From a bacterium (lineage in GTDB: Bacteria > Patescibacteriota > Patescibacteriia > UBA10025): 64,000 nt of DNA. The position numbers and the translations under genes are program-made. The notes under the pieces are model-generated. The model was not told where the DNA came from. It worked only from the letters and a program-made list of their open reading frames with translations, and searched no databases. Of the stretch, positions 1,364 to 43,631 are shown piece after piece (position 1 is the first letter of the stretch; each line of letters starts with the position of its first letter). The DNA lies in NCBI GenBank assembly GCA_021815445.1, contig JAKAGM010000001.1, positions 3,447 to 67,446 of the forward strand, in the 5' to 3' direction.

Positions 1364-2494
1364 ATGCCGGATGACACCATGCCCCCGCAAAATAACCAAC
1401 CCGCGTTTCACGCGATGCCTGAGAAGTATTATCTCGGCAAACAGCCAAAGGCAAAATCAAAGCGGCTGCTGGTTACGGTAATCGTGCTGGTAGTCATTGC
1501 GCTCGGGTTAGGAGTCGCGTATTTCTTTACCCGAGGGATGAATAATGGTCGCACAACGAATATAACAGCCAACTCTCTCTCGCCCGTGAATCAGGCAACC
1601 CTTAATCGGAATGCGAATAGGAACATAAATGCTCTGGCGCCGGCAAACGCAAATCTCAATACAAACACTTTGACTTTCCTGAACACCAATAGTACTCAGC
1701 TCAACACCCAGCCGACCAACACCGCGGGGCCTGTTATCAATACTGTGACCAATTCATTGTTTTCCACAAATACGAACACCGCTACGATAACCAACGTCGC
1801 CCGCCTTGCGGATTCGGTAGACACCGACCATGACGGGCTGACTGATGTGGAGGAGCTTCTCTATGGGACAAACAAAAACCTTGCCGATACCGATGGTGAC
1901 GGTTACTCGGATGGTGTCGAAGTCGCCGGAGGCTACAATCCCCGCAGCGCCGGCCTTATCATCTCTACAAATCTGGTAAAAGAATACGTCCATCCCATGT
2001 TCGGTTATAAGATACTCTTCCCGTCGACCTGGATCCAGAATCCGAATCCGCAAACATCGAACGGGGTCATTTTTTCAACGTCTACAGGCGAGTTTGTGGG
2101 AATAGATGTCGAAAATAATACAGCAAAGCTTTCTGCACGAGACTGGTATCTCAAAGCTTCCCCCGGAATAGATTTGCGCTCGGTCACCACTATCCAAAAT
2201 ACTGCGAAAACGCTCGAAGGAGTCCTGAGCCTTGACGGGCAGACGGCATACTATACGGCAGGGGAACGCGCGTATATCATTTCGTACAATACCAATCTTT
2301 TGAGTACGATAAATTTTCGGACGACATTTGAGATGATGTATAAAAGCTTTTCCCTGACTCCCGTAGTCCTCACGAACACAAACTCCGGCGCGAACACGAA
2401 TGCTGGTACTGCAAATACAAACTCAAGCCTCAATTCAAACGCAAATACCAACAGCAGCACGCCGACAAACGTCTCGACCAACACGGGATATTAA
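1364..2494 (+). CDS. membrane-anchored protein with N-rich low-complexity linker and TSP3-like repeats (paralog 3)
   Basis: TM helix, long N/T-rich tract, DTDHDGLTDVEE / DTDGDGYSDGVE repeats, C-terminal globular part. Confidence 0.6.
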   Translation: MPDDTMPPQNNQPAFHAMPEKYYLGKQPKAKSKRLLVTVIVLVVIALGLGVAYFFTRGMNNGRTTNITANSLSPVNQATLNRNANRNINALAPANANLNTNTLTFLNTNSTQLNTQPTNTAGPVINTVTNSLFSTNTNTATITNVARLADSVDTDHDGLTDVEELLYGTNKNLADTDGDGYSDGVEVAGGYNPRSAGLIISTNLVKEYVHPMFGYKILFPSTWIQNPNPQTSNGVIFSTSTGEFVGIDVENNTAKLSARDWYLKASPGIDLRSVTTIQNTAKTLEGVLSLDGQTAYYTAGERAYIISYNTNLLSTINFRTTFEMMYKSFSLTPVVLTNTNSGANTNAGTANTNSSLNSNANTNSSTPTNVSTNTGY

Positions 2495-2507
2495 CGCGAA
2501 AGGCGGT

Positions 2508-2981
2508 ATGCTCGATATAGCGTTTCGCTCAGTACATGGTGTTCGCGGCCCGCGTGAGGCTGTTACCGGAGTGCTGGGATGCGCAGCGCGGGTACCTCTG
2601 GTCAGGAAAAAACTTACACAAAGAACTCAGAACAGTGTCACGGTTATTTTTTGCGGGATATCCACAATTCGCGCATTGAACTTCCGTTATCGCAACGTGC
2701 GGAAACCTACCGATGTTCTGTCATTCTCATACCCGTTTTCGCGCCGAGATTCCCAGCATGGAGATTCAGTATTCCTTGGCGAGATATTTATCTGTGTCCC
2801 GATTGCCCGTCGGCAGGCTCGTGAATACGGACATTCCATGCGCGCGGAGATTGAGTTGTTGGTTGTGCATGGTTTATTACACATTCTTGGCTTTGATCAT
2901 ACCACTCGATCCGGGGCCCGGAAGATGAGGATAATCGAGAATAAAATTCTCCGGCGGACTGTTTCGAGAACCGAACATTAG
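2508..2981 (+). CDS. ybeY: endoribonuclease YbeY (rRNA maturation factor)
   Basis: HGLLHILGFDH zinc-binding motif typical of the YbeY/UPF0054 family; ATG at 2508 is in frame with the longer ORF that starts at 2400. Confidence 0.8.
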   Translation: MLDIAFRSVHGVRGPREAVTGVLGCAARVPLVRKKLTQRTQNSVTVIFCGISTIRALNFRYRNVRKPTDVLSFSYPFSRRDSQHGDSVFLGEIFICVPIARRQAREYGHSMRAEIELLVVHGLLHILGFDHTTRSGARKMRIIENKILRRTVSRTEH

Positions 2982-3042
2982 GCCCAAGGGTTTGGGGAAA
3001 CGGTTTTCCTCGATGCTATGTACGTTTTGATATCATAATCGT

Positions 3043-3402
3043 ATGTTCCAATTCCAAAAACTGATCAAAAGTTTCCGCTACGCGTTTCGCGGTCTTTGGT
3101 ACGTGACAAAGCACGAACAGAGTTTCAGGCTGCACCTTATTGCCGCAGCTGTCGTTGTGTTTCTTATGCTGTATTTTCATATCACCATTAAAGAAGCCGT
3201 CATCCTGTCGCTCGTTATAGCTGCTGTCCTGGTTTTGGAGCTCATTAACACCATTTTTGAGAGCCTCGTTGATATGCTCCAGCCGAGGATTCATCATCTT
3301 GCCGAAGTAATAAAGAATATCATGGCGGCCACTGTCCTCATAGCCTCACTTGGAGCGCTCATTATAGGCATTCTCATCTTCGCTCCGTATGTTTTCCATT
3401 AG
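3043..3402 (+). CDS. dgkA: diacylglycerol kinase / undecaprenol kinase family (DgkA)
   Basis: 119 aa, three TM helices, LELINTIFESLVD motif typical of prokaryotic DAGK. Confidence 0.75.
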   Translation: MFQFQKLIKSFRYAFRGLWYVTKHEQSFRLHLIAAAVVVFLMLYFHITIKEAVILSLVIAAVLVLELINTIFESLVDMLQPRIHHLAEVIKNIMAATVLIASLGALIIGILIFAPYVFH

Positions 3403-3533
3403 TATTCGATCACGAGTATGGCCACTCCGACGCTGAACACAAAATCTGGACACCCGTGCCGCCGTTGCGCGCTTTTGCATATTCATTTATACTGTTAGAT
3501 ATCAACATCTGTGCGTATTAAAGCATTCAGACT

Positions 3534-6526: not shown

Positions 6527-6538
6527 TAAAATCCGATT

Positions 6539-6988
6539 ATGAATTGCTTATCCTGCGGCAAAGAAGACACGAAGGTCACTGATTCACGGGTAGTAAACGA
6601 TGGAATGGCGATTCGGAGACGTCGAGAATGCCAAAAATGCGGTTTCCGGTTCTCTACCTACGAAGAAGTTGAAATTTTAAATCTTTCAGTGGTCAAAAGG
6701 GACGGGGTCCATGAGCCCTATTCACGCGAGAAGGTTGAGCGCGGACTCAAAAAAGCTCTCGAGAAACGGCCGATAACGCAAGAGAAGTTCCGCATGCTCA
6801 TTGCAAACATTGAGCGGGATATTCAGACCGAGGCGAAATCCGACGAGGTGACCAGCAGCCAGATCGGCGAGATTATCATGCGCCATCTCAAAAAAGCCGA
6901 TAAGGTCGCATATATCAGGTTCGCGTCAGTGTATAAATCTTTTGAGGATATCGATTCTTTTAAACAAGAAATTAAAAAAATCACTTAA
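6539..6988 (+). CDS. nrdR: transcriptional repressor NrdR
   Basis: N-terminal zinc ribbon CLSCGKEDTKVTDSR...CQKCGFRF followed by an ATP-cone; 149 aa. Confidence 0.9.
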   Translation: MNCLSCGKEDTKVTDSRVVNDGMAIRRRRECQKCGFRFSTYEEVEILNLSVVKRDGVHEPYSREKVERGLKKALEKRPITQEKFRMLIANIERDIQTEAKSDEVTSSQIGEIIMRHLKKADKVAYIRFASVYKSFEDIDSFKQEIKKIT

Positions 6989-6999
6989 AAACCATCTTT

Positions 7000-9777
7000 A
7001 TGTCCTCTTCCGACGTATCTCCTACCCAAACAAAGGTTAAGGAGTCGGTGAGTGTGCTGACTCAAGAGCAGACTGCGGGGGCCGCGCACGCACGCGAAGG
7101 ACTCCATATGGATTATTTTTTTTCCCGCAAGGGTGTGCACCCCTATGATGAGATCGAATGGGAACTGCGCGAAGCCAAGATTGTCGGAAGCGACGGGAAA
7201 GTCGTTTTTGAGCAAAAAGATGTTGAATTGCCTAAGACGTGGTCGCAGCTTGCGACGAATGTTGTCGTATCCAAATATTTTCGCGGCAGGCTCGGGAGTC
7301 CCGAGCGCGAAACAAGCGTCAAGCAGATGGTATCGAGGGTAGCCGATACGATTGCCGCATGGGGGAAAGCAGGAGGCTATTTCGCCAGCGACGAGGACGC
7401 GGAGACTTTCCGCATGGAGCTTACGCATCTTCTCGTCTATCAAAAAGCGGCGTTTAACAGTCCCGTGTGGTTTAATGTCGGGGTCAAGGAACATCCGCAA
7501 TGTTCGGCCTGCTTTATCCTCTCCGTCCAGGATTCCATGGAGTCTATTTTAGATTGGATCAGGAAAGAAGGACTCATCTTTAAGGGCGGGTCCGGATCAG
7601 GCGTCAACCTCTCGACGCTCCGGTCATCGCGGGAACAGCTGTCCGGCGGCGGGTACGCGTCCGGTCCGGTCTCGTTCATGCGCGGCGCCGATGCTTCGGC
7701 CGGTTCCATAAAATCCGGCGGCACGACGCGCAGGGCGGCCAAGATGGTTATCCTCAATGTCGACCACCCCGATATCATTGAATTCATACATTGCAAAGAG
7801 GTCGAGGAAAAGAAGGCGTGGGCGCTCGGCGAACAGGGATACGATATGTCGATGAACGGTGAGGCGTGGAAGTCCATCCAATTCCAGAATGCCAACAATT
7901 CAGTGCGCGCGACGGATGAATTCATGCAGGCTGTTGAGAATGACGGTCTCTTTTCTACCCGCTCGGTAGGCAGCCACAACCCCGTAGACCAATACCGTGC
8001 CCGCGACATCCTGCGGCAGATATCCGAGGCGACCTGGGTATGCGGCGATCCCGGTTTGCAGTACGACACTACGATCAATGCGTGGCACACCTGTCCCAAT
8101 ACGGGCAGGATTAACGCCTCGAATCCGTGTTCAGAGTACATGCACCTCGATAATTCAGCGTGCAACCTCTCCTCAATCAACCTGATGAAATTCCTCAAGG
8201 ACGATGATTCTTTCGATGTCGGGGGGTACAAACGGGCGATAGATATCATGATTCTCGCGCAGGAAATACTCGTAGGATTTTCGAGCTATCCGACGGAGGA
8301 AATCTCGCGGAATGCCCATGATTACCGGGAGCTCGGTCTGGGATACGCGAACCTCGGCGCTCTTCTAATGTCATGGGGCCTGCCGTATGATTCAGACGCG
8401 GGCCGCGCGGTGTCTGCGGCTCTCACGGCGTTTCTTACCGGTGAAGCGTATGCGGAATCGGCGCGAGTAGCCGCTGTCGTCGGGCCTTTTGCCGGATACG
8501 AGAAAAATCGCGAGCCCATGCTCAATGTTATCGCAAAACACAAATTTCACCTGGATGATATCAACCGGCACTACGTCCCGGCTGAACTTTTTGCCGCCGC
8601 TGAAACCTCATGGACAGACGCACTGGAGCTTGGCAAGCACAACGGATTCAGAAACTCACAGACGACTGTCCTTGCCCCCACCGGAACGATCAGCTTCCTG
8701 ATGGATTGTGATACGACAGGCATCGAGCCCGACATAGCCCTGGTCAAATACAAGAATCTTGTCGGCGGCGGCGTCATGAAGATTGTCAACCACTCGGTGC
8801 CTCGCGCCCTGCACAGGCTCGGGTACAGCCAGGACCAGGTCGACGCTATCATAAGGTACGTCGACGACAAGGGGACTATCGAAGGAGCTCCGGAACTGAA
8901 AGAGGAACATCTCTCAGTTTTCGACTGCGCGTTCAAACCGGCGAATGGCGTCCGCTTCATCCACTACATGGGCCATATCAGGATGATGGGAGCCGCGCAA
9001 CCGTTTATCTCCGGGGCCATCTCAAAGACGGTAAACCTGCCGAAAGAAGCGACTGTCGATGATATTTCCACTGCGTATACCGAAGGGTGGAAGCAAGGCC
9101 TCAAAGCGCTCGCCATTTATCGCGACGGTTCCAAGCGCACGCAACCGCTCTCGACGGCCGATGATGATACGACCCAAAAGACGCGTGAGACAAAGCAAAA
9201 GTCATTGCGCAGACGGCTGCCGGACGAGCGCAAATCCATCACCCACAAATTCTCCGTCGGCGGCCATGAGGGGTACATCACCGCCGGGCTCTATGACGAC
9301 GGTACGCCCGGAGAAGTGTTCATTACCATGGCGAAAGAAGGCTCGACAATATCGGGGCTCATGGATGCCTTTGCTACCTCAATCTCCATCGGCCTCCAGT
9401 ACGGCGTCCCGCTCAAGACGATGGTCAATAAGTTTTCCCACATGAGGTTCGAGCCCTCAGGATTTACCGGTAACGCTGATATTCCGATAGCAAAGTCGAT
9501 TGTCGATTACATCTTCCGCTGGATGGGCAGGAAATTCCTCCCCCAGGAGGAGCAGGCGGAGGCGACAAAAGAAGCTGTCAAACCGATTGTCGAGAATGGC
9601 AATCATGACAGTGTAAAAGCAGAGACAGCGCCATCTGTTCCGTCCGCGTTCCAGCAAAAGATAACGTTCACCAACCAGGAGGACGCGCCTGCATGCCAGA
9701 CCTGCGGATCAATCATGGTCCGCAACGCGGCCTGCTACAAATGCACCAACTGCGGCGCTACAAGCGGGTGCAGCTAA
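7000..9777 (+). CDS. nrdJ: ribonucleoside-diphosphate/triphosphate reductase, class II (adenosylcobalamin-dependent, NrdJ-like)
   Basis: 925 aa; ASGPVSFMRGADAS...NVDHPDIIEFI and the NPCSEY active-site region match monomeric class II RNRs; C-terminal CxxC...CxxC; no NrdB partner in the window; nrdR lies 12 bp upstream. Confidence 0.85.
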   Translation: MSSSDVSPTQTKVKESVSVLTQEQTAGAAHAREGLHMDYFFSRKGVHPYDEIEWELREAKIVGSDGKVVFEQKDVELPKTWSQLATNVVVSKYFRGRLGSPERETSVKQMVSRVADTIAAWGKAGGYFASDEDAETFRMELTHLLVYQKAAFNSPVWFNVGVKEHPQCSACFILSVQDSMESILDWIRKEGLIFKGGSGSGVNLSTLRSSREQLSGGGYASGPVSFMRGADASAGSIKSGGTTRRAAKMVILNVDHPDIIEFIHCKEVEEKKAWALGEQGYDMSMNGEAWKSIQFQNANNSVRATDEFMQAVENDGLFSTRSVGSHNPVDQYRARDILRQISEATWVCGDPGLQYDTTINAWHTCPNTGRINASNPCSEYMHLDNSACNLSSINLMKFLKDDDSFDVGGYKRAIDIMILAQEILVGFSSYPTEEISRNAHDYRELGLGYANLGALLMSWGLPYDSDAGRAVSAALTAFLTGEAYAESARVAAVVGPFAGYEKNREPMLNVIAKHKFHLDDINRHYVPAELFAAAETSWTDALELGKHNGFRNSQTTVLAPTGTISFLMDCDTTGIEPDIALVKYKNLVGGGVMKIVNHSVPRALHRLGYSQDQVDAIIRYVDDKGTIEGAPELKEEHLSVFDCAFKPANGVRFIHYMGHIRMMGAAQPFISGAISKTVNLPKEATVDDISTAYTEGWKQGLKALAIYRDGSKRTQPLSTADDDTTQKTRETKQKSLRRRLPDERKSITHKFSVGGHEGYITAGLYDDGTPGEVFITMAKEGSTISGLMDAFATSISIGLQYGVPLKTMVNKFSHMRFEPSGFTGNADIPIAKSIVDYIFRWMGRKFLPQEEQAEATKEAVKPIVENGNHDSVKAETAPSVPSAFQQKITFTNQEDAPACQTCGSIMVRNAACYKCTNCGATSGCS

Positions 9778-10073: not shown

Positions 10074-10208
10074 ATTTTTCGGTGTTTTTTACCTGTGAAT
10101 TAAACAGGCCAGTGTAGCAGAAATTGAAGTATTGTCAAGGGCCGCCTTTGCATTTACCGCCCGGGTGCAGTATCCTGAATCTTACCGGGCATTAAACGCA
10201 CGATACCT

Positions 10209-10808
10209 ATGACTTTCAACCAGCGCGACATAGAATTTCTCTACGAAATCGGCTCCCTGCGCAATGTGCAGAGGGGCTGGCGCCAGCATTTGGCAAAAGA
10301 CTGCGCCAACGACCTCGAGCATACGTACCGCGTCATATGGATAGCCCTCATGCTCGCGAGGAAAGAAGGGGTGACGGACGAGAACAAAGTTATTAAGATG
10401 GCGCTGGTGCATGACCTGGCCGAGGCGCGGACCTCTGACTTGAGCTATGTGCAGAAAGTGTACGTGAAAGCCGACGAAGACAAGGCGGCGCACGACACGT
10501 TCGACGGGACGAGCGTAAATGATTTTTACTCCGAGATACTGAGTGAGTTTGAAAAACGAGACTCATTAGAAGCAAAAATAGTCAAAGATGCCGACAATCT
10601 TGATGCGCAGATTGAGCTGAAAGAGCTTGAGGAAACCGGCTCGAAGATTGCCACGAAATGGATGGCCACTTTTCGCAAACTAGTCAGAAAGGAAAAACTC
10701 TACACCCGGGCGGCCAAAGACCTCTGGGATGCTCTCGACGAAGCTGATGTCGCTGACTGGCACATGAAGGCCAATAAATGGCTCAAGATCCCCGGCGCTG
10801 GCAAGTAA
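10209..10808 (+). CDS. HD-domain phosphohydrolase (YfbR-like 5'-deoxynucleotidase family)
   Basis: H...HD...D metal-binding pattern (LEHTYRVIWIAL...VHDLAEARTSD). Confidence 0.7.
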   Translation: MTFNQRDIEFLYEIGSLRNVQRGWRQHLAKDCANDLEHTYRVIWIALMLARKEGVTDENKVIKMALVHDLAEARTSDLSYVQKVYVKADEDKAAHDTFDGTSVNDFYSEILSEFEKRDSLEAKIVKDADNLDAQIELKELEETGSKIATKWMATFRKLVRKEKLYTRAAKDLWDALDEADVADWHMKANKWLKIPGAGK

Positions 10809-10818
10809 GAGGCAAGTT

Positions 10819-11250
10819 ATGACAGTTGTCGATAAAAAGAAACGCGTTCTCGATTTCATCAAACGCCAACATGTAGCCGTGTTGGCGACGGTTGACGGCG
10901 TGCGGCGCGTACCCGAGTGCGCTGTCGTTGAATTCTCAGAGACGGATAACCTTGAGATTATTTTTGACACATTTTCCTCGTACCGCAAGTACGGAAATTT
11001 GCAGACGAACCAGCGCGTTGCGCTCGTGATCGGCTGCGAGGACGACGTCACTGTCCAGTACGAGGGCGTCGCCCGCGAGGTGACCGGTGACGAACTGAAA
11101 CGGTGCCAGAAAATTCATACGGCCAAGCTTCCCGGTGCGAAAAAGTTCACGACGATGGAAGACATCAGATTTTTTCGTATTACCCCGGTGTGGATCCGCT
11201 ACGTGAATGTGTCGCTCGATCCGTGGGAAGTCTTCGAGCTTTCATTATGA
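10819..11250 (+). CDS. pyridoxamine 5'-phosphate oxidase-like FMN-binding split-barrel protein
   Basis: 143 aa with the HVAVLATVDG...VALVIG pattern of the PPOX/general-stress protein 26 family. Confidence 0.6.
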   Translation: MTVVDKKKRVLDFIKRQHVAVLATVDGVRRVPECAVVEFSETDNLEIIFDTFSSYRKYGNLQTNQRVALVIGCEDDVTVQYEGVAREVTGDELKRCQKIHTAKLPGAKKFTTMEDIRFFRITPVWIRYVNVSLDPWEVFELSL

Positions 11251-11822
11251 AGAGTACTCCCAAAAAGAAGTTTAAAGTCCTGAATCGCGGACTGACCATT
11301 GCCTATATCGGAAACGGGAAAGGGAAGACAACCGCGGCTGTCGGCGCGGCAGTCAGAGCGCGCGGCTGCGGGATGCGAGTGCTTTTTTTGCAGTTCTATA
11401 AAAGTCCCGAATGGCCCTCGGGAGAACGGCAGGCTCTCGTGAAGCTGGGCGTCAAGGTTCACGTTGTCGGCGAGGGGTTTGTCGGCATCCTCGGAGACAG
11501 AAAAAAACTTGCCGTACACAAAAAGGCCGCGGAGCGGGCGCTGAGAGAGAGCCGTAGAGCCCTTGTTTCAGGCGCATACGACCTTATTATCCTCGACGAA
11601 GCTATTTCGTGCCTCGAGCAGAAGCTGTTTACGCCTGCCCGGCTGGCGACACTCCTGAAGCTCAAACAAAAATCCACAAAAGCATCTCATGTCCACTTGA
11701 TTTTGACCGGCCACAAAAGATTTCCGCAGATACTCAAGCTCTGCGACCTGGTCACTGAGATGAAGATGGTGAAGCACCCATATTACCAAGGGTTTTTGGC
11801 GGTAAGGGGAGTGGATTATTAA
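11247..11822 (+). CDS. cobA: cob(I)alamin/corrinoid adenosyltransferase, CobA/CobO/BtuR type
   Basis: P-loop GNGKGKTTAAVGAAVRARGCGMRVLFLQFYK typical of the CobA family; ATG at 11247 overlaps the upstream stop by 4 bp (ATGA). Confidence 0.75.
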   Translation: MKSTPKKKFKVLNRGLTIAYIGNGKGKTTAAVGAAVRARGCGMRVLFLQFYKSPEWPSGERQALVKLGVKVHVVGEGFVGILGDRKKLAVHKKAAERALRESRRALVSGAYDLIILDEAISCLEQKLFTPARLATLLKLKQKSTKASHVHLILTGHKRFPQILKLCDLVTEMKMVKHPYYQGFLAVRGVDY

Positions 11823-11954
11823 CCACAAAGTACTATGGACACCCCAACACCTCAGCCCACCCCACAATCCTCATCAAGCACAATGATGCGAGTCATTTTG
11901 GTAATCATTCTCATTATCGTCGGCGCGGGCGCTTACTTCTGGTGGCAGAAAGGG
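11815..11954. repeat. 140-bp direct repeat copy 1 (promoter-proximal region and first 40 codons of the 11835 gene)
   Basis: identical base-for-base to 13371..13510. Confidence 0.9.
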
Positions 11955-13304
11955 CAAGCAAATACGAACAGTGCGAACCTCGTCCTCAATGCCATGAACC
12001 AGAGTACCAATGCGCCCTCCAACATCAATTCGGTTGCCAACGCGAACACCACCTTGAATACCAATATCGCCGTAAATGCCAATACTCCCGCTAATCTCAA
12101 CACGGCAGTAAACACCAATACTGCGGTAAACTCAAATACCAATACCGCAGTGGATACGAGCGGGTGGCTGGCCGAGACGGCGCGATGCAGTCATGAGCCC
12201 GTATCTCAGCAAAAGGAAAGTATCTTAACTGATAACTCTGACTGGCAAGTCATACGGGTATACAGGGGTGAGCTAAAATTCTCGTACGAAGTACCTTCTA
12301 GTGCAACTTTTAATACCGGTCTGGACAGATATACGAAAACTGGGTCAGAAGAGAGGGAAGTAATATCCGAAGTAAATCTAGAAGGTATGGCTATTGATGT
12401 TAGATGGTATAAAAACAACTCTTCGTTTGAGCTGTGGACTAGGGATCATGAGAATGAGATTTATACTTCCTATATTGCCAGCTCACGTGGCGCGGCAATA
12501 TCGGAACCAGAGCAGATAGTTGTTGATGGACGCAAAACAAAAACATATGAAGTTACGAGTCCTTTTGGGTTTAAGGTAATGCTGGTTTTTGTTGAGGATG
12601 GGGATAAAATATATCAAATAGAGGTTCGGGGGCCAGCGGAGAATATGGAAAACTTCAAAGGGGATATCAATAAAGTATTAATGAGTTTTCACTTTGAAAT
12701 CCCTGATCCAGGTGAATTGATATTTACCTATCGCGAAATTGATCTGTCCTTCAGGTATCCTTCATCCGTCGGCACTCCTCAGCTTGCATGGGGTACCCCA
12801 GTGAATAATAAAAATTGGGAGAAAGCTATGATTGAAGTAGGTCAGAAAGGCCAAAGTGCTTTTTCAATAACACGGGAAGCGGATTATTATAGCTCACATG
12901 AAAATGAGTGGCTGTATACTTTTTACGGGAAAGCGGTCGATGCTAAGCAGCCTCTTTCAGATTTAATCCTTTTTATAAGTAGAGATTTCAAAAATATTCT
13001 CGGTATTTCAAATAAATGTGGTTTCGTTGAGATAGTTGAACTAGACCAATATAATACTCAAACAGCGTTAATTTATCGAGCATTTGTTCCTCATCCTGAT
13101 TATAAGGTTGTATTAGCAACTTTCGTGATAAGTACATCTTTTCCTAATCTTGAAAATAGTAATATTGATCCTAATCTTGTGATAGCCAATGATATGCTCA
13201 ATGACATTAAAATGGGTACATTTCAACAAGATATTATTCAGAATTTAGACACATTTCGTGCGATCTTACCAACAATAAAAACTGCAACACCCCTACCCCG
13301 CTGA
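11835..13304 (+). CDS. membrane-anchored protein: conserved N-terminal anchor, N/T-rich linker, AT-rich C-terminal globular domain
   Basis: MDTPTPQPTPQSSSSTMMRVILVIILIIVGAGAYFWWQKG anchor identical to the 13391 gene; C-terminal ~1.1 kb is markedly AT-rich compared with its surroundings. Confidence 0.6.
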   Translation: MDTPTPQPTPQSSSSTMMRVILVIILIIVGAGAYFWWQKGQANTNSANLVLNAMNQSTNAPSNINSVANANTTLNTNIAVNANTPANLNTAVNTNTAVNSNTNTAVDTSGWLAETARCSHEPVSQQKESILTDNSDWQVIRVYRGELKFSYEVPSSATFNTGLDRYTKTGSEEREVISEVNLEGMAIDVRWYKNNSSFELWTRDHENEIYTSYIASSRGAAISEPEQIVVDGRKTKTYEVTSPFGFKVMLVFVEDGDKIYQIEVRGPAENMENFKGDINKVLMSFHFEIPDPGELIFTYREIDLSFRYPSSVGTPQLAWGTPVNNKNWEKAMIEVGQKGQSAFSITREADYYSSHENEWLYTFYGKAVDAKQPLSDLILFISRDFKNILGISNKCGFVEIVELDQYNTQTALIYRAFVPHPDYKVVLATFVISTSFPNLENSNIDPNLVIANDMLNDIKMGTFQQDIIQNLDTFRAILPTIKTATPLPR

Positions 13305-13370
13305 CTTCGATGGCGACGGCCTTTCTTAATACTTGCTGCTAGGTTACAATGGATATGTAATCTGACAGTA

Positions 13371-13510
13371 ATTATTAACCACAAAGTACTATGGACACCC
13401 CAACACCTCAGCCCACCCCACAATCCTCATCAAGCACAATGATGCGAGTCATTTTGGTAATCATTCTCATTATCGTCGGCGCGGGCGCTTACTTCTGGTG
13501 GCAGAAAGGG
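13371..13510. repeat. 140-bp direct repeat copy 2
   Basis: identical to 11815..11954. Confidence 0.9.
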
Positions 13511-14113
13511 GATACAAAAATAAACACCGCAAACATTGCCATTAATACTACCAATAGGAACACAAATACCGTCTCCAATGCCAATTCGGCTGTGAATACC
13601 AATGTTGCCTCAAATGTCAACACTGCCGCTAATCTCAACACAGCGGTGAATGTGAATGCGGGGGCAAACTTAAACACCAACGCGGCAGTGGATACGAGCG
13701 GGTGGAAGACGTATGAGAATAGCACGTATGGGTACAACATCAAATATCCAACAGACTGGAAGGTAGTTGAGGCCACGGGGATGCTTACAGAATTCTCGCC
13801 CACGAGCAAGGATTATACCGTCGAGGGCTCGATTGCCTACCCCGTGGGGATAACAGGCTATACAGGCGCTGCATCTGATTTCTTAAGTCAGGTGTCGTCA
13901 GATAAGAAGAGTTCAGTAACCATTAATAATCAGGCTGCCACAAAGGTCATAGGATATTCGAATTCAATCTCTTATGTCTTTTCTAATCAGGCGCGAGTGC
14001 AATATCTGGTAATTGGTCCAAATAGCGCGCTGTTAAATAACGTAGATGTTTCAGATCGATCAACAATAGAATCGATGTTTGAGGCAATGCTTCGGACGTT
14101 CACAATTCAATAG
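13391..14113 (+). CDS. membrane-anchored protein paralog with identical N-terminus and a different C-terminal domain
   Basis: first 40 aa identical to the 11835 gene, then an N-rich linker and an unrelated 130-aa C-terminal domain. Confidence 0.6.
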   Translation: MDTPTPQPTPQSSSSTMMRVILVIILIIVGAGAYFWWQKGDTKINTANIAINTTNRNTNTVSNANSAVNTNVASNVNTAANLNTAVNVNAGANLNTNAAVDTSGWKTYENSTYGYNIKYPTDWKVVEATGMLTEFSPTSKDYTVEGSIAYPVGITGYTGAASDFLSQVSSDKKSSVTINNQAATKVIGYSNSISYVFSNQARVQYLVIGPNSALLNNVDVSDRSTIESMFEAMLRTFTIQ

Positions 14114-14197
14114 GAGGTAAGAATGCACTTTAACAACTGGTCTACCTGAAGGTCAGATAGAAACCACTATCCAACTCCCAAACTAAAGAGGTGTTAC

Positions 14198-16189
14198 ATG
14201 AGAACTGTAATGGTCGCTCTTGTTGCGCTGGTGCTGTCAGCTACCAGCGCTGTAGCAGTCGATCTAACGGAAACTGGATTTTACTACCCAACTGGCAGCC
14301 ACACATTAGGCAGCTATGCCGGATGGTTAGCAGTTCCGCCAGCTTACTTTGACGGCTACTACCATATCGGCAAAGATATTGACACCGGTGAAGTTGCGCC
14401 TGTGTACGCAATTTCGAATGGCATCGTGATCTACATCAGTTCTGGTGGATGGGGGACGAACAACAAGGGGGTGTTTGTGAGGCACACCCTTGTAGATGGG
14501 TCTCAGTTCGTTGCGCTTTACGGACACGTGAGAACAAGCAAGGTGGTGAATGACGCGGTACAAGCTGGTGTTCAATTTGCGACGATTGGGCCGTGGGATC
14601 CGACACATTTGCATTTTGGCATTCATCCTGGAGGGACTATACCCTCCGATCCATACGGTATGCTACCCTTGCCGGTGACATCGCCGTACAATGGCTGGCA
14701 GGATCCAATCGATTGGATTGCAACGCACAGTCCCGCTGGTGCTTACTCCTGCTCCTTCGTCTCCAAGTCTATCTCGCCTGCCGGTCCGTATGTTCCAGGG
14801 CAGACAGTTACCTGCCAGGTGAAGTTCAAGAACGAGGGTACGGCAACGTGGAGTAAGACAGGCGGCCAGTCGAATTACGTCGAATTGGGATCGTGCGACG
14901 GAAACGGAGGCATCGGCTACAGTTTCTTCAACTATCCCTGCACACTCCCCAATGACGGCCAAGTTCCATCATGGCTGAATTGCAAAGTGCCATGCACCTT
15001 CGTAGAATCCAATGTGCCGCATGGCAGTAATGCGACCTTCAACTTCACGGGTAAGATTAGGGACACGTTACCCAGTACATACAGCGTGTATTTCGGACCT
15101 GTCTGGAATAGCGCAATCATGTCTGGCTGGGTCGGGACGCATTACGCCGTCCAAGTCACCATCCCTGAGTCGTTCTCTACCATGACCCTTACCCCCATCG
15201 CAGGTGATTGGAACGGAGATGGAGTCTCCGAGGTCGGGGTCTATGCCGACGAGACGCAAACCTTCTATCTGGACACCAACAATGACGGGTATACGGAGTT
15301 GGAGCTTCATTACAGCTCAGCCGTAGACAAACCTTTGGCCGGCAACTGGGCTGGCGGCGGGTACTACGGCGTTGGTTTTTACCGTCCCGCCTATCGCACC
15401 TTCTGGCTGGATTATGACAACAACGGCCAGATGGACAATGGCATTGTGTTTGGTGACGGTGGAGACACGCCTTTGGCAGGTGACTGGCTTGGGAACGGCT
15501 ATTCCCGAATTGGCCTATACCGCCCTTCAACCAGGACATTCTGGCTGGACTACGACAACAACGGCACTGCAGACTTTAGCCGTGTCTTTGGAGATGCCAC
15601 GGACATTCCTATCACGGGAGACTGGGACTGTGACTTGGACTGGAACATCGGCGTTTACCGCCCGTCTACCAGGACGTTCTGGTTAGACTACAATAATGAC
15701 GGCTCGGCCGATTTCTCCCGAACCTTCGGAGACGCCGGTGATCTTCCCGTTGTCGGAGACTGGACCGGCAACTGCGGCACCAACATCGGCGTATTCCGCC
15801 CCTCCACCCAGGAATTCTGGCTCGATTACAACAACGACGGAACGGCTGACCGAGGGTTCCAGATCCAACGGATTATTCCCGGTTCGCCTAAGATCACGGC
15901 ACATGGAGAAGACAATACTCTGCCTCGGACATTCTCCCTGTCCCAGAATTACCCGAACCCGTTCAACCCGGGCACGACGATCAGGTACACCTTGCCGAGG
16001 AGTACCCACGTCGTTCTTTCCATCTACAATGTTCTGGGGCAGAAGCTGGAGACTCTGATTGATGAGCACCAGTTCGCCGGAGAGTATATCGCTTTCTGGG
16101 ACGGATCGCGCTTCGCATCGGGCATGTACTTCTACCGCCTCGTCACCGATCAGGCGGTGGAGACAAAAAAGATGATTCTTTTGAAGTAA
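14198..16189 (+). CDS. secreted multidomain protein: M23/LytM-like peptidase domain, FG-GAP-like repeats and a T9SS-type C-terminal sorting domain
   Basis: signal peptide; HIGKDID...HLHFGIHP (M23-like); four or more ~40-aa repeats (GDWxGxG...YRPSTRTFWLDYNNDGTADF); C-terminal LSQNYPNPFNPGTTIRYTLP...GMYFYRL...KKMILLK matches the Por secretion-system CTD pattern. Confidence 0.75.
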   Translation: MRTVMVALVALVLSATSAVAVDLTETGFYYPTGSHTLGSYAGWLAVPPAYFDGYYHIGKDIDTGEVAPVYAISNGIVIYISSGGWGTNNKGVFVRHTLVDGSQFVALYGHVRTSKVVNDAVQAGVQFATIGPWDPTHLHFGIHPGGTIPSDPYGMLPLPVTSPYNGWQDPIDWIATHSPAGAYSCSFVSKSISPAGPYVPGQTVTCQVKFKNEGTATWSKTGGQSNYVELGSCDGNGGIGYSFFNYPCTLPNDGQVPSWLNCKVPCTFVESNVPHGSNATFNFTGKIRDTLPSTYSVYFGPVWNSAIMSGWVGTHYAVQVTIPESFSTMTLTPIAGDWNGDGVSEVGVYADETQTFYLDTNNDGYTELELHYSSAVDKPLAGNWAGGGYYGVGFYRPAYRTFWLDYDNNGQMDNGIVFGDGGDTPLAGDWLGNGYSRIGLYRPSTRTFWLDYDNNGTADFSRVFGDATDIPITGDWDCDLDWNIGVYRPSTRTFWLDYNNDGSADFSRTFGDAGDLPVVGDWTGNCGTNIGVFRPSTQEFWLDYNNDGTADRGFQIQRIIPGSPKITAHGEDNTLPRTFSLSQNYPNPFNPGTTIRYTLPRSTHVVLSIYNVLGQKLETLIDEHQFAGEYIAFWDGSRFASGMYFYRLVTDQAVETKKMILLK

Positions 16190-16224
16190 TTCCTTTGTGG
16201 GGGAAAGGATTAACTAGCCATCAA

Positions 16225-16258
16225 CCCTTGCGACAACGGTGCTGCAGGGGATTTTTTT
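16225..16258 (+). terminator. probable terminator after the 14198 gene
   Basis: imperfect hairpin CCCTTGCG...CTGCAGGGG followed by ATTTTTTT. Confidence 0.35.
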
Positions 16259-16329
16259 ATTTAACCTTCGCGATTCTGCGTTCTGTCTACCTCGGTTTGA
16301 GTTATGCACCATTGACTGGTTGAGCGAAA

Positions 16330-16570
16330 CCCTGGTACACTTCATCCACATTAACAACTCATAACAGGTAAGCCGGTGAGATTCCGGCACGGTCCCGCCA
16401 CGGTAATAAATAGTCCGACACCTTTTCGCCCCCTTACGTAGTAAGGAGCGGATAAAGCCAAATCATTCGAGCTTGAGCTCGAGTCCTTCGGGGAAAGGTC
16501 GGACGATACTTGCCTTAGTTTACACTGCAGCGCGGCCTTAGAAGGGAACTAAGGTTTTTTTAATTTAGTA
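16330..16570 (+). ncRNA. cobalamin (B12) riboswitch with terminator expression platform
   Basis: core AAcAGGtAAgccGGTGAGATTCCggcaCgGTCCCGCCACgGTAA matches the conserved cobalamin riboswitch core (GGTGnnAnTCC...CCCGCCACTGTAA); B12-box-like AGTCCGACACC...GCC; strong terminator CCTTAG-aagggaa-CTAAGG+T8 at 16536-16568 just upstream of the 16584 ATG. Confidence 0.65.
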
Positions 16571-16583
16571 ACATCACTTTCAT

Positions 16584-17054
16584 ATGGATAAACCTCCAAT
16601 GGTAGTAGTCAAACAAAAAGCAAAAACGAATTATGCGGCACTCGGAATCATCGCCGTCGTGGCGGCCGGCGTATTATTTTTCGGGAATGCCTATAACAAA
16701 GGAGTAACCAATGACGCCCAGAAAGCGGGCGCAGGCGTTGTTGCCGGAGTAGAGTCAGTCCAGCAGGAAGCGACGCTCACCATCAACAACGGCAAAACCA
16801 CCCGCAGTATGGTCATGACCCTCAATCCGGGCGTCTCTGCGCTTGATCTCGTCATCCGGGCGGGAATGAGGGAAAACTTTACAGTCGAAACGAAGAAATA
16901 TGACTTCGGGACCATCGTCGAATCTATCGACGGCGTGCGCGGCGGCGACCAGAAGAAATACTGGCTGTACTATGTGAACGGCAAACAGGCGACAGTCGGC
17001 GCGGATGCGTACAAAGTGCAATCCGGGGATACCATAGACTTCAGATTCGAATAA
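16584..17054 (+). CDS. DUF4430-family protein (transcobalamin/intrinsic-factor C-terminal-domain-like, putative B12-binding)
   Basis: N-terminal TM anchor; C-terminal YWLYYVNGKQATVGADAYKVQSGDTIDFRF matches the DUF4430 signature (W.Y.VNG...G...Y.LKDGD.I.W); directly downstream of the B12 riboswitch. Confidence 0.7.
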   Translation: MDKPPMVVVKQKAKTNYAALGIIAVVAAGVLFFGNAYNKGVTNDAQKAGAGVVAGVESVQQEATLTINNGKTTRSMVMTLNPGVSALDLVIRAGMRENFTVETKKYDFGTIVESIDGVRGGDQKKYWLYYVNGKQATVGADAYKVQSGDTIDFRFE

Positions 17055-17059
17055 TTTCC

Positions 17060-17584
17060 ATGAAAAAAAAGTACTCCATTGCCGTAGCTCTCGCATTGAT
17101 TCTGGTCGGGATGGCCGTCCGTCTCCTTCCGCATCCGGCCAATTTTACCCCCCTTGCCGCAATAGCGCTTTTTTCCGGCGTGTATCTTCCCCGCAGGTTT
17201 GCTCTCGTTGTGCCTCTCGCCGTGATGGTGGCTTCTGATGCGTTGATTGGCTTTCACAACCTCGTACTCTTTACCTGGGGATCCTTCGCGCTGATCGGAG
17301 TGATCGGCTGGTGGGTACAAAAGCATAAGCACGTCACTACGGTCATCGGCGGGGCGCTTGCCGGGTCTCTGCTCTTTTACCTCGTGACTAACTGGGCCGT
17401 GATGCAATTCGGGACTATGTACCCGCACACCATCTCGGGATTACTTGGCTCGTATGCTGCGGGGATACCTTTTTTCCGCAACATGCTTCTCGGAGACCTT
17501 TTTTACACGTCGACCTTTTTCGGGGCCTATGAATTGGCTGAGCGGCTGGGCGTGCGGATAGGAGCCCGCGCAGAAATTCGGTAA
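17060..17584 (+). CDS. polytopic membrane protein, ECF-transporter S-component-like (putative corrinoid uptake component)
   Basis: 174 aa, 5-6 TM helices, N-terminal LPHPANFTPLAAIALFSG motif reminiscent of ECF S components; 6 bp downstream of the DUF4430 gene in the same riboswitch-controlled unit. Confidence 0.5.
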   Translation: MKKKYSIAVALALILVGMAVRLLPHPANFTPLAAIALFSGVYLPRRFALVVPLAVMVASDALIGFHNLVLFTWGSFALIGVIGWWVQKHKHVTTVIGGALAGSLLFYLVTNWAVMQFGTMYPHTISGLLGSYAAGIPFFRNMLLGDLFYTSTFFGAYELAERLGVRIGARAEIR

Positions 17585-18648: not shown

Positions 18649-19068
18649 ATGGCCGGAGAAGAAAAACAACAGTCTTCCACAGCTTTAAATGCCGGTCTCA
18701 TAGCCCTTGCCGCGCTTGTGATTGCGGGAAGCATCTTTTTTGCATTCCGACACAAGGTTGCGCCTGCGATGAACGCTCCATCAGCGGGGACAAACACCCC
18801 GGCGGCTGCGCAAAATGCCAACACGGGAAAATTTGAAGGCGATTCCATCACCGTGGGATGCTCCAGTAATGACGACTGTGTCGTCTGGGGGTGTTCAAGC
18901 CAGCTCTGCGGGAGAAAGGTGAAAGTGCAAGACTTAACAACGACGTGTGAATATAAGGACGTTTACTCGTGCACAAAGCTGACAACATGCGGATGCTTCG
19001 AAGGGGAATGCCAATGGCAGCAGACGCCCGATTATACTTCCTGCGTGGAGAAAAAGAAGTCTTCATGA
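18649..19068 (+). CDS. small membrane-anchored cysteine-rich protein
   Basis: TM helix then 12 Cys in the last ~70 aa (GCSSNDDCVVWGCSSQLCGRK...CGCFEGECQWQ). Confidence 0.5.
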   Translation: MAGEEKQQSSTALNAGLIALAALVIAGSIFFAFRHKVAPAMNAPSAGTNTPAAAQNANTGKFEGDSITVGCSSNDDCVVWGCSSQLCGRKVKVQDLTTTCEYKDVYSCTKLTTCGCFEGECQWQQTPDYTSCVEKKKSS

Positions 19069-26260: not shown

Positions 26261-27190
26261 TCAGGTTTTCTCGGCCCAGATGGCCTCGGCTTCCTCAAGA
26301 AGTTGGATTCCTTCATTCTCGGGGCGCTGGAAGATATTGCGTCCAATGATGCTTCCAAACCCTCCGCCATCTCTGATGGCACGGATTTCCGAGAGAACCG
26401 CGGCCTTGTCTTTTGCTTCGCCCCCCGAGAAGAGGACGATCCTCCGGCCGCCGAAAGCGGACTGTATAACGTGTTTGATACTGTCGACGAGCGCAGTATG
26501 AGGGATGTCCAGATCTTCGTAGAGTTTCGATCCCTCTTGCTTACCGGCGAAGTACAGACTTCCTCGCGGCGGCTTCACCTTGACGATGTGCGCCCCAAGC
26601 TGGCAGGCGATGTGCGCGGCGTAGGCGATCACATCCGTAGCCTCCTGTTTCGCCTTGGTGTCGAGGTTGCCGCCTCGCGGATACGACCATACGACGACGA
26701 CCAGCCCGGCTGCCTTGGCCTCTGCGGCGATCTCGCGAAGCTGCTCATACATTTCACGCGAACGCGGAGATCCGGGGTAGATCGTAAATCCCACGGCGCG
26801 ACAGCCCAGGCGCAGCGCATCTTGGACTGAAGCCGTTACGGCAGGGCACGGATCGCCGGTGGAGAGCAGGTCGCTGTTGTTGAGTTTGAGTATCAAGGGG
26901 ATTCCCCCTTTGAATTCTTCGAATCCGGCTTCCAGAGCACCGAGAGGAGCAGCGTGGGCGTTACACCCCGCCTCGATGGCAAGATGGAAATGGTATCTGG
27001 GGTCGTATCCTGCCGGGTTCTTTGCGAAACTGGCTCCCGGACCATGCTCAAAACCCTGGTCAACGGGCAGGATGACCAATTTGCCGGTGCCCGCCAGCCT
27101 GCCGTGGTTGAGAATCTGTGCAAGATTCGCCAGCACTTGCTTATTTTCTCCCCGGTACCACGAGAGAATTTTATCAACTGGTTCTGACAT
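26261..27190 (-). CDS. fba: fructose-bisphosphate aldolase class I, DhnA/FbaB (archaeal) type
   Basis: GRLAGTGKLVILPVDQGFEHGP...AIEAGCNA closely parallels E. coli FbaB; start at 27190 chosen for the strong SD AGGAGGAAG. Confidence 0.8.
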   Translation of the reverse strand: MSEPVDKILSWYRGENKQVLANLAQILNHGRLAGTGKLVILPVDQGFEHGPGASFAKNPAGYDPRYHFHLAIEAGCNAHAAPLGALEAGFEEFKGGIPLILKLNNSDLLSTGDPCPAVTASVQDALRLGCRAVGFTIYPGSPRSREMYEQLREIAAEAKAAGLVVVVWSYPRGGNLDTKAKQEATDVIAYAAHIACQLGAHIVKVKPPRGSLYFAGKQEGSKLYEDLDIPHTALVDSIKHVIQSAFGGRRIVLFSGGEAKDKAAVLSEIRAIRDGGGFGSIIGRNIFQRPENEGIQLLEEAEAIWAEKT

Positions 27191-27339
27191 ACTCTTCCTC
27201 CTGTTACGTGGTGGTTTTGGTGAGCGATGTTGTTTCATGTTATTGCGAGATCACTCTATCATGTACCGTCTTGAGCGTCAATATAAGAAAAACGACCGCG
27301 GATTAATGCGGTCGTGACGTATTCAGAGTGTGCCGAGGG

Positions 27340-41572: not shown

Positions 41573-41647
41573 CGGACCCAAGGGGATTTGAACCCCTGGT
41601 CTTCTCCGTGACAGGGAGACGTGTTAACCGGGCTACACCATGGGTCC
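41573..41647 (-). tRNA. tRNA-Asp (anticodon GUC)
   Basis: GGACCCA-UG-GUGU-AGCCCGGUUA-ACAC-G-UCUCC-CUGUCAC-GGAGA-AGACC-AGGGG-UUCAAAU-CCCCU-UGGGUCC-G; canonical cloverleaf, 75 nt, CCA not encoded. Confidence 0.9.
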
Positions 41648-43231: not shown

Positions 43232-43631
43232 TGGTGGAGATGAGGGGAATTGCACCCCTGTCCAATATACGAACCAGTCAACGTCTCCAAGCTATCCTAT
43301 TTTAGCGTGGTCGATGGCAGAAGTCAAAATAGGAAAAAGGTCCTGCCATCCGAGTCTCGTGGTACGGCCGGGAGCAAGAGACACGCTCGTCGGTCGTCCT
43401 CCGTTTGTGACACCTCCGACCTTCTCAGGAGGAATCAGAAGGGGAGATGGTTATCGGTTTTTACGCGACAACAGGCGCAAAGGAAGGCGCAAATACGCTT
43501 GCAAGTGCGGTCTTCGCTTTGCTTACAAATGATTTGGCATTTGTCTAATTGGAGCCAGTTTAACGTCATGAACTGCCGTGGACGGCTTGCAGTTGAGATG
43601 GCAATGTACACTGTCGATTATAAGCATCCCC
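43232..43631 (-). ncRNA. ssrA: tmRNA (SsrA)
   Basis: 5' GGGGAUGCUUAUAAUCGACAG (acceptor G3-U wobble, UCGAC box) and 3' GGACAGGGGUGCAAUUCCCCUCAUCUCCACCA (T-arm plus acceptor plus CCA); 34 nt downstream of smpB; candidate tag frame ending ...APSFAPVVA-UAA (stop at 43463-43461). Confidence 0.8.

Follow-up and report, generated by a model that had tools for sequence, protein, structure and literature searches.

A predicted cobalamin-repressed operon in a Patescibacteria genome pairs a transcobalamin-like DUF4430 protein with a DUF6580 membrane protein of putative S-component fold

Members of the Patescibacteria, or candidate phyla radiation (CPR), make up a large share of bacterial diversity and depend on scavenged cofactors, and in the genome studied here a vitamin B12-dependent reductase makes the precursors of DNA. 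How such a cell would obtain cobalamin is the question raised by a locus within a 64-kb stretch of contig JAKAGM010000001.1 (assembly GCA_021815445.1; this whole stretch is referred to below as the window), in which a leader of about 250 nt precedes two open reading frames (ORFs), encoding a DUF4430 protein and a small polytopic membrane protein of the DUF6580 family, followed by a gap and a polysaccharide deacetylase gene that is unrelated to the operon. The question is a general one, given that roughly half of B12-auxotrophic bacteria lack BtuCDF and that no membrane transporter is known for the majority of these (PMC6072759). The original prediction, made from the sequence alone, read the region as a riboswitch-controlled corrinoid capture module, and every element that it named was found where it had been placed. 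Homologues of both operon proteins assign the window to the CPR, and our analysis leads us to interpret the locus, with a probability of about 0.8, as an operon for corrinoid uptake that cobalamin represses, in a CPR genome auxotrophic for B12; synthesis of B12 does not appear plausible in this 881-kb genome, which would need adenosylcobalamin (AdoCbl) for its class II ribonucleotide reductase, NrdJ.

The upstream ORF belongs to the DUF4430 family, as had been proposed, with a match to PF14478 of 63.5 bits against a cutoff of 23.8. Its expected membrane anchor takes the form of a single N-terminal hydrophobic segment (residues 14-38) that follows a group of lysines, no lipobox was found in the protein, and an Ala/Gly/Gln-rich low-complexity linker joins the helix to a domain at residues ~60-156 that AlphaFold2 (AF2) modeled with a predicted local distance difference test score (pLDDT) above 92. 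In this model, two strands (62-68 and 73-79) and a helix (86-97) are followed by a β-hairpin (101-106/109-115), and a hairpin at this position is the defining feature of the transcobalamin-like clade of SLBB domains (PMC1796856). In Foldseek, the modeled domain superimposed on the human transcobalamin β-domain (5NO0) with a template-modelling score (TM-score) of 0.80 and a root-mean-square deviation of 1.9 Å, and all 19 hits with E<0.001 were transcobalamin, intrinsic factor, haptocorrin or the bacterial protein 3U7Z, among them 5NP4, an isolated β-domain with bound cyanocobalamin. The claim that DUF4430 is the fold of the eukaryotic B12 carriers thus stands for the β-domain and not for the carrier fold as a whole. 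Collectively, these models point to an extracytoplasmic, membrane-tethered, transcobalamin-β-like SLBB domain, and its fold and genomic context suggest that it binds cobalamin. B12 scavenging by such proteins is an old prediction rather than a new one, as extracellular bacterial transcobalamin-like SLBB proteins were proposed in 2007 to perform this function, often fused to, or accompanied by, an α/α-toroid domain and another paralogue (Burroughs et al., PMC1796856).

The combination of DUF4430 with a B12-specific S-component of an energy-coupling factor (ECF) transporter has a named precedent. The S-component CbrT was described in an nrdJ-cbrS-cbrT-pduO cluster, in a study that says nothing on CbrS (Santos et al. 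2018, PMC5997447). A Lactobacillus locus encoding a CbrT homologue has the order nrdJ - DUF4430 - DUF4430 - CbrT - PduO and, because this order matches the published one, we identify CbrS as a DUF4430 protein. The window DUF4430 protein is 34-35% identical to Lactobacillus CbrS1 and CbrS2 over the conserved motif, and the DUF6580 ORF starts 5 nt past the DUF4430 stop codon; judged by sequence and gene order, the pair would be a divergent equivalent of cbrS-cbrT. The description of this pairing as poorly characterised therefore needs narrowing, since it applies to DUF6580 itself, a family that no paper we found names, and not to the partnership of DUF4430 with a B12 S-component.

The 174-aa membrane protein matched PF20221 (DUF6580) at 170 bits (cutoff 27) and nothing in NCBIfam; DUF6580 was its only family, and no recognised S-component family in Pfam or NCBIfam was hit. 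Sequence searches of the Protein Data Bank (PDB) and NCBIfam with both operon proteins returned nothing decisive. The family comprises 6,640 representatives at 50% identity, 4,829 of them with E<=1e-10, and some members are named 'DUF6580 family putative transport protein' by NCBI. An AF2 model built from 41 homologues (pLDDT 93.9; predicted template-modelling score 0.87) predicts a six-helix ECF S-component fold, its best three PDB matches being the S-components FolT (4HUQ_S), FolT (4Z7F) and RibU (5KC0), with TM-scores of 0.53-0.64 and Foldseek probabilities of 0.97-0.99; the ECF-S-like character first suggested for this protein is thereby borne out at the level of the model. One relative (P0171) additionally gave a sub-threshold match to ECF-ribofla_trS (E=0.003). 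When the DUF6580 profile was searched against PDB sequences using hmmsearch, exactly one matched, 6FNP_A (E=0.15). The structure in entry 6FNP is that of ECF-CbrT, a vitamin B12 transporter (Santos et al. 2018, PMC5997447), and we take its chain A to be CbrT because it is 182 aa long and labelled 'Membrane protein'. Comparison of DUF6580 with the CbrT family by hhalign gave a probability of 62% (E=7.4e-5) over 61 columns spanning the first three transmembrane segments (TM1-TM3), aligning R..LPHPxNFxP with R..IPIPNVQP of CbrT and M..SD..IGF with M..SN..LGF (in family form, R..P-x-P-N-[FV]-x-P and M..S[DN]..[IL]GF). This profile link, weak but specific, suggests that DUF6580 may be distantly CbrT-like. 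A metagenomic protein of 337 aa (P0192) joins DUF6580 (5-165) and DUF4430 (255-329) in one chain, with an additional hydrophobic segment (185-214) between them, a natural fusion in which the order of the partners is opposite to that of the usual operon.

The genomic surroundings of DUF6580 link the family to cobamides. Scanning the representative genomes of GTDB recovered 572 relatives, of which the best 80 loci were kept at species level with 3 kb on each side. Cobalamin-clan riboswitches passed the Rfam gathering threshold in 35 of the 80 loci, and a custom covariance model found further cores in 14, for a total of 49. A DUF4430 ORF was present in 43 loci, nearly always directly upstream of DUF6580 and on the same strand; 24 encoded an adenosyltransferase (10 PduO-type and 14 BtuR-type), 14 encoded NrdJ, 18 encoded an α/α-toroid protein of at least 400 aa, often together with DUF4430, and 23 encoded a TonB-dependent receptor, 17 of these with a riboswitch. 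At least 67 of the 80 loci held one or more B12 markers, counting riboswitch, DUF4430, adenosyltransferase, NrdJ and BtuB-like receptor. DUF4430 and a TonB-dependent receptor were never found in the same locus (0/80), DUF4430 occurring in CPR and the receptors in diderms, where the gene order is either riboswitch-receptor-DUF6580 or DUF6580-riboswitch-receptor; several CPR loci instead read riboswitch-DUF4430-DUF6580-PduO. In the window, genes for NrdJ and for a BtuR/CobA ATP:corrinoid adenosyltransferase lie upstream of the leader. The former protein is 76-79% identical to NrdJ of two of the closest relatives (L084 and L086), and the latter is 68% identical to BtuR of the relatives, in which btuR stands directly upstream of the leader. 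The arrangement in these relatives, NrdJ-...-BtuR-leader-DUF4430-DUF6580-deacetylase-Cys-rich protein-HtrA-GlnA, comprises the same genes as the window. This comparative evidence, together with the upstream genes of the window, strongly supports the reading of a corrinoid capture module.

Regulation by cobalamin required closer scrutiny, as the whole-window Rfam scan at gathering thresholds reported only a tmRNA and a tRNA and no cobalamin riboswitch. Scanning positions 16150-16650 with permissive filters gave an RF00174 match at 16309-16443 on the forward strand (30.7 bits, E=4.4e-6; gathering score 31.5) whose alignment covers the full model length with the 66-nt P6 extension reduced to 1 nt, and the window riboswitch falls under the thresholds of both RF00174 and RF01689. 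Homologous leaders do pass RF00174 gathering, with 36.2 bits in L002 and 32.2 bits in L086. We compared the window leader with five others, three from the closest loci (L084-L086) and two from species-level relatives (L001 and L002), and found it conserved block by block in all of them, in the order TACACT -10 box, core CGGUCCCGCCACGGUAA, AGYCCGAC.CC, a covarying hairpin, an invariant CCUUCGGGGAAAGGUCG element and a terminator; the segments CCCGCCACGG and AGUCCGACACC, which align to the RF00174 model core (GCCACUG-like strand and B12 box), are invariant across the six leaders. In an alignment of 10 compact cores from different CPR lineages, 8 of which had been picked via Rfam hits, 93.6% of cells in the P3, P4, P5 and P6 helices were paired, as against 33-51% when the 3' partners were slid. 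Compensatory changes were present in 8 of the 14 core pairs, none of 500 shuffles matched the observed values, and the window leader fits all 14 pairs. A custom covariance model, for which the window was part of the training set, had a single match in the 64 kb, to the core at 63.9 bits; a strict core-motif regular expression for sub-threshold riboswitches had proved too insensitive, and this model was used instead. Given a shortfall of 0.8 bits and this comparative evidence, we did not accept the threshold miss as a refutation of the riboswitch: the predicted core stands on its covariation, its conservation and its passing homologues, and what fails is the literal RF00174 cutoff.

The boundaries of the aptamer probably differ from those of the Rfam match. 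A promoter-like site, whose TACACT box is kept in the homologous leaders, predicts a transcription start near 16348, and because of this placement the 5' 40-50 nt of the RF00174 match are probably promoter DNA, the real aptamer being the compact core. It would then probably belong to the compact class that lacks the P6 extension, similar to RF01689 (AdoCbl-II). Downstream of it, RNAalifold pairs columns 209-216 with 258-269 to form a post-aptamer hairpin that shows compensatory changes in relatives, and an inserted clade-specific hairpin (16465-16484) lies just 5' of a further hairpin, CCUU-CGGGGA-AAGG. Loop L5 of the aptamer reads UCCCG (16393-16397), and RNAalifold predicts its pairing with CGGGG in the loop of the latter hairpin, both loops being invariant in close relatives. 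An L5-L13 kissing loop reportedly occurs in cobalamin riboswitches, and we regard this hairpin as a candidate L13 partner. Loci with RF01689-type leaders have UGCCG in L5 followed by a conserved CC-CGAGCA-GG hairpin, so that loop sequences are subtype-specific; such pairs are suggestive of L5/L13 co-variation and compatible with it, without amounting to proof. The leader ends in the attenuator terminator that had been noted originally, a hairpin of -14.6 kcal/mol with an alternative inner hairpin at 16534-16556, and a hairpin with a U-run also ends all five homologous leaders, with differing stem sequences. Thermodynamic folds further suggest a GUCCGAC/GUCGGAC pairing between the 3' strand of the aptamer and the expression platform. 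We take the switching mechanism only as far as a putative kissing loop and a terminator. Table 1 lists the features of the locus and the associated upstream genes.

Table 1. Features of the operon, its leader and genes upstream, in window coordinates.
Feature	Position	Strand	Match or basis
Leader (promoter-like site to terminator)	~16312-16561	+	
Promoter-like site TTGACT, 18 nt, TG-extended TACACT	16312-16341	+	consensus scan; sequence match alone
Predicted aptamer core, P3-P4-P5-P6 and B12-box-like AGUCCGAC	16362-16427	+	custom covariance model, covariation, RF00174
Post-aptamer hairpin UUUCGCC...GGCGGAUAAAG with internal CCUUAC-GUA-GUAAGG stem-loop	16424-16457	+	RNAalifold, folds
Hairpin CCUU-CGGGGA-AAGG, candidate L13 partner of aptamer L5	16485-16498	+	invariant in 6/6 leaders
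Intrinsic terminator GCCUUAGUUU...GGGAACUAAGG then U7 (hairpin 16512-16554, U7 16555-16561)	16512-16561	+	folds
DUF4430 protein, CbrS-like, 156 aa (alternative start 16599, 151 aa)	16584-17054	+	PF14478
DUF6580 protein, 174 aa, polytopic membrane protein	17060-17584	+	PF20221
NrdR	6530-6985		
NrdJ, class II adenosylcobalamin-dependent ribonucleotide reductase	6976-9774 (stop-to-stop)	+	Pfam Ribonuc_red_lgC, Ribonuc_red_2_N, TSCPD
HD-domain nucleotidase	10179-10805		
BtuR/CobA ATP:corrinoid adenosyltransferase	11247-11819	+	PF02572, 167 bits

A different kind of platform was seen in four loci with RF01689-type leaders (L005, L013, L025 and L046), which have the CC-CGAGCA-GG hairpin in common 3' of the aptamer and, after it, a second hairpin whose 3' arm carries GAGGAG directly before U-runs and the ATG. 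Their sequences suggest that terminator and ribosome-binding-site control are combined, unlike in the window. Other surveyed loci carry more than one switch. In four metagenome-assembled genomes labelled Chitinophagaceae (L010, L037, L041 and L064) the order is riboswitch-DUF6580-riboswitch-TonB-dependent receptor, with two separate full-length riboswitches, one before each gene, and each gene therefore has its own switch. In L018, two cores (1141-1201 and 1283-1358), to which the custom model gives 74.6 and 50.9 bits, stand in tandem and may form a tandem riboswitch; they lie upstream of an ORF of 524 aa that matches a toroid hidden Markov model and nothing in Pfam, followed by DUF6580 and PduO. 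In L066, a second riboswitch (1735-1909) lies 3' of PduO and before a 539-aa ORF (1857-3473) that has no Pfam match and, from this position, would be a further uncharacterised B12-regulated gene. Finally, ten CPR loci (L003, L007, L008, L013, L015, L021, L022, L027, L050 and L055) have a gene for a protein of 550-830 aa that is flanked by a small DUF4430 gene and by DUF6580. The encoded products are α/α-toroid proteins of the squalene-cyclase/prenyltransferase type, often with an added DUF4430 domain, and the window operon has none; by sequence, the CPR proteins that join toroid and DUF4430 would represent a bacterial version of the full two-domain transcobalamin architecture.

Based on these data, we propose that at high intracellular cobalamin the ligand would bind the compact aptamer, L5 would dock on the hairpin with the GGGG loop further 3' and transcription would stop at the terminator, and that at low cobalamin the polymerase would read through into the two translationally close genes. 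The tethered DUF4430 domain would capture free corrinoid outside the cell, as a counterpart of the uncharacterised lactobacillar CbrS, and hand it to DUF6580, which would move it across the cytoplasmic membrane. BtuR could then adenosylate the corrinoid to AdoCbl, for which NrdJ is the likely consumer. The identities of the parts by sequence, fold and context, and the covariation of the riboswitch, are observations; ligand binding, hand-over, the direction of transport, ECF independence and the details of the RNA switch are our inferences from them.

Several observations weigh against this interpretation. The window DUF4430 protein lacks the α/α-toroid domain that forms half of the B12 pocket of transcobalamin, and no riboswitch lies within 3 kb in 31 of the 80 loci. 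Despite TM-scores of about 0.6, the Foldseek E-values of DUF6580 to S-components are 0.24-0.4, and the link to CbrT consists of the profile match at E=0.15 and an hhalign alignment confined to TM1-TM3. The RF00174 score of the window lies below gathering, and no convincing antiterminator was identified in the leader, the terminator forming in every in silico fold. An ECF module could be located elsewhere on the 881-kb contig, and heme binding has been proposed for transcobalamin-like proteins of L. sakei (bioRxiv 10.1101/864751); these last two points correspond to the first two alternatives below.

The first alternative concerns how uptake is energised. As originally stated, no ECF energising component is nearby: neither motif searches nor phmmer found an ABC or ECF ATPase in the 64-kb window, and an ORF with an LSGGQ-like motif (26264-27250), which we had considered as an ABC protein, was rejected as a DeoC aldolase. 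Within the survey, an ABC ATPase lies beside DUF6580 in 1 of the 80 loci, on the opposite strand. Docking of S-components on EcfT involves an AxxxA motif in TM1, and this motif is not conserved in DUF6580, where 21 of 41 sequences have Ala at position 10, Ile or Val occupies position 14, and only position 17 is conserved, as G/A/S. It could nevertheless be that DUF6580 is a group-II S-component that shares an EcfA/A'/T module encoded elsewhere and is driven by ATP in the manner of CbrT. Genes for group-II S-components are said to be typically scattered away from the ECF module, and the S-component fold of DUF6580 is in keeping with such a partnership. Its closest sequence relative, CbrT, requires ECF (PMC5997447), and SLBB proteins have been found in operons with CbiO/CbiQ-like genes (Burroughs et al., PMC1796856). 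Set against this are the missing ATPase, in the window and beside DUF6580 in 79 of 80 loci, the unconserved AxxxA and the frequency of DUF6580 next to btuB-like receptors in diderms, which is the setting of the ECF-less transporter BtuM. We consider ECF dependence possible though rather unlikely, and lean towards DUF6580 working as a solitary transporter, because ABC genes are missing from the loci, the family is common beside btuB in diderms and AxxxA is absent. BtuM, likewise S-component-like, sets a precedent for B12 transport by a solitary protein (Rempel et al. 2018, PMC6072759). Membership of DUF6580 in the BtuM family was rejected, as no BtuM chain was among the PDB hits at E<=10 and the window protein has no cysteine.

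The second alternative is that what the module handles is not complete cobalamin but a precursor or another tetrapyrrole (heme, cobinamide or a different corrinoid). In L. sakei, an ECF-like operon with split transcobalamin α- and β-like proteins has been proposed to import heme (bioRxiv 10.1101/864751), ECF-CbrT also transports cobinamide, and a reviewer of the SLBB paper warned of possibly diverse ligands (PMC1796856). The riboswitches, adenosyltransferases and NrdJ genes counted above nevertheless tie DUF6580 to cobamides, and an 881-kb CPR genome would be unlikely to complete cobinamide to cobalamin, so that a substrate other than cobalamin seems improbable. Slightly more doubtful still is that DUF6580 is not a transporter at all and instead acts as a membrane protein for corrinoid processing or docking (for example a decyanase or reductase) or as a receptor for DUF4430, with the true permease elsewhere. 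BtuM does have decyanase chemistry (PMC6072759), the transport role of DUF6580 is a model-based prediction, and R21, H25, N28, D60, T110, N111 and D146, which are invariant or nearly so in the 41-sequence alignment (A1), could be catalytic; yet S-component folds serve as scaffolds dedicated to translocating substrates, diderm loci often have DUF6580 as the sole inner-membrane protein of a riboswitch-btuB unit, and the loci contain no other recurrent candidate for a permease. That the operon is free of B12 regulation and its riboswitch-like sequence matches by chance or through decay, for which one might cite the sub-gathering score, a promoter-like site overlapping the 5' third of the Rfam alignment and unremarkable folding z-scores of the leader, is hardly credible in view of the covarying core helices, a leader kept in relatives of which two exceed gathering, the single custom-model match in the window and the conserved terminator 3' of the aptamer.

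Outside the operon, the window differs from its three closest relatives, in which btuR lies ~300 bp from DUF4430, by three extra genes at 11835-16189 between btuR and the leader, encoding two paralogues, both Asn/Thr-rich and membrane-anchored, and an M23 peptidase. With a GC content of 38-43% at 12100-13500 and ~53% in the flanks, this segment looks like an insertion. It contains a direct repeat of 299 nt at 78% identity (11815-12113 and 13371-13669), and the two paralogous ORFs (11835-13304, 489 aa; 13391-14113, 240 aa), neither of which has a Pfam match, have identical first 40 residues, MDTPTPQPTPQSSSSTMMRVILVIILIIVGAGAYFWWQKG. The third ORF (14198-16189) encodes a 663-aa protein with an N-terminal Peptidase_M23 domain, FWLDYxNxG repeats and a C-terminal Por_Secre_tail (31 bits), a type IX secretion system sorting signal that is unexpected in Patescibacteria and may reflect horizontal acquisition; a terminator-like hairpin follows it at ~16225-16260. 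On the 3' side of the deacetylase, a syntenic gene (18649-19068) encodes a 139-aa membrane-anchored cysteine-rich protein whose orthologues match Pfam Heavy_Cys_CGP. The two RNA genes reported by the Rfam scan are a tRNA (41573-41647, reverse strand, 67.7 bits) and a tmRNA (43232-43631, reverse strand, 86.7 bits), the latter with a long insertion after the tag-reading-frame region in the model alignment.

Already known are this class of riboswitch, the idea that DUF4430 scavenges B12, and the paradigm of the S-component. Three points appear new: that DUF6580 is recognised as a CbrT-like family of S-component fold whose genomic context points overwhelmingly to B12, that it pairs in complementary fashion with DUF4430 in CPR and BtuB-like receptors in diderms, and that CbrS is identified as DUF4430; our literature search found no paper that brought together Patescibacteria, cobalamin and a riboswitch. 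More tentatively, and at somewhat less than even odds, DUF6580 proteins may constitute an unrecognised group of ECF-independent corrinoid transporters, a fourth kind after BtuCDF, ECF-CbrT and BtuM/BacA, which would be the main B12 route of CPR, fed there directly by tethered DUF4430 with or without an α/α-toroid protein, and the inner-membrane partner of BtuB in the diderm Ignavibacteriota, Bacteroidota and Omnitrophota. The locus and the 80-genome comparison thereby nominate a widespread family as a missing B12 transporter and propose a concrete role for the long-predicted bacterial transcobalamin-like proteins, including the CbrS that stands beside the validated CbrT, with a bearing on proposals that the B12 carriers of animals came from bacteria.

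Comparison with known systems shows what is shared and what sets the window operon apart. The domain of the putative binder shares with the β-domains of transcobalamin, intrinsic factor and haptocorrin, and with the SLBB clade, a β-grasp fold with a β-hairpin inserted after the helix, as well as a common motif, YW...G(A/I)ADY...GD/E-x-I-[DE]-[FL]-R. Like the clade, it is predicted to be extracytoplasmic and occurs in organisms without B12 synthesis, although the contexts described in 2007 were CbiO/CbiQ operons (PMC1796856) and the partner here is DUF6580. Many CPR loci encode the two-domain architecture of transcobalamin as α/α-toroid plus DUF4430 protein, whereas the window has the β-like domain only, with no toroid protein in the operon, and tethers it to the membrane where transcobalamin is soluble. 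For the RNA, the compact P3-P6 core, the B12-box-like 3' strand, a downstream hairpin placed for a possible L5-L13 kissing loop and the presumed role as an OFF switch before B12 transport genes are those of RF01689 (AdoCbl-II) and clan CL00101; the window differs in its L5, UCCCG with a matching GGGG loop 3' instead of UGCCG, and in using a terminator as its expression platform.

With BtuM of Thiobacillus denitrificans, DUF6580 has in common that it is a small S-component-like protein for which import without an ECF module is proposed, and just as BtuM was predicted from co-localisation with btuB, DUF6580 of diderms sits in riboswitch-btuB-like units. BtuM, however, ligates cobalt through a cysteine (PMC6072759) whereas the window DUF6580 is cysteine-free, no sequence similarity between the two was detected in the PDB searches (E<=10), and DUF6580 occurs in CPR, Ignavibacteriota, Bacteroidota and Omnitrophota while BtuM is found mostly in Proteobacteria. 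CbrT is the only PDB sequence matched, weakly, by the DUF6580 profile and aligns with the family in the TM1-TM3 motifs, but it belongs to another Pfam family (ECF_trnsprt, PF12822) and operates with an ECF module, of which none was seen in the 64-kb window. The nearest parallel in gene order is the Lactobacillus nrdJ-cbrS-cbrT-pduO cluster, where DUF4430 likewise lies directly upstream of a protein of S-component fold and near an adenosyltransferase and NrdJ. Relative to this cluster, the window binder is anchored by a transmembrane helix and is neither a lipoprotein nor secreted, the adenosyltransferase is BtuR-type, with PduO-type enzymes in other CPR loci, and the operon stands behind a predicted riboswitch, where none was detected in the Lactobacillus locus surveyed (L081).

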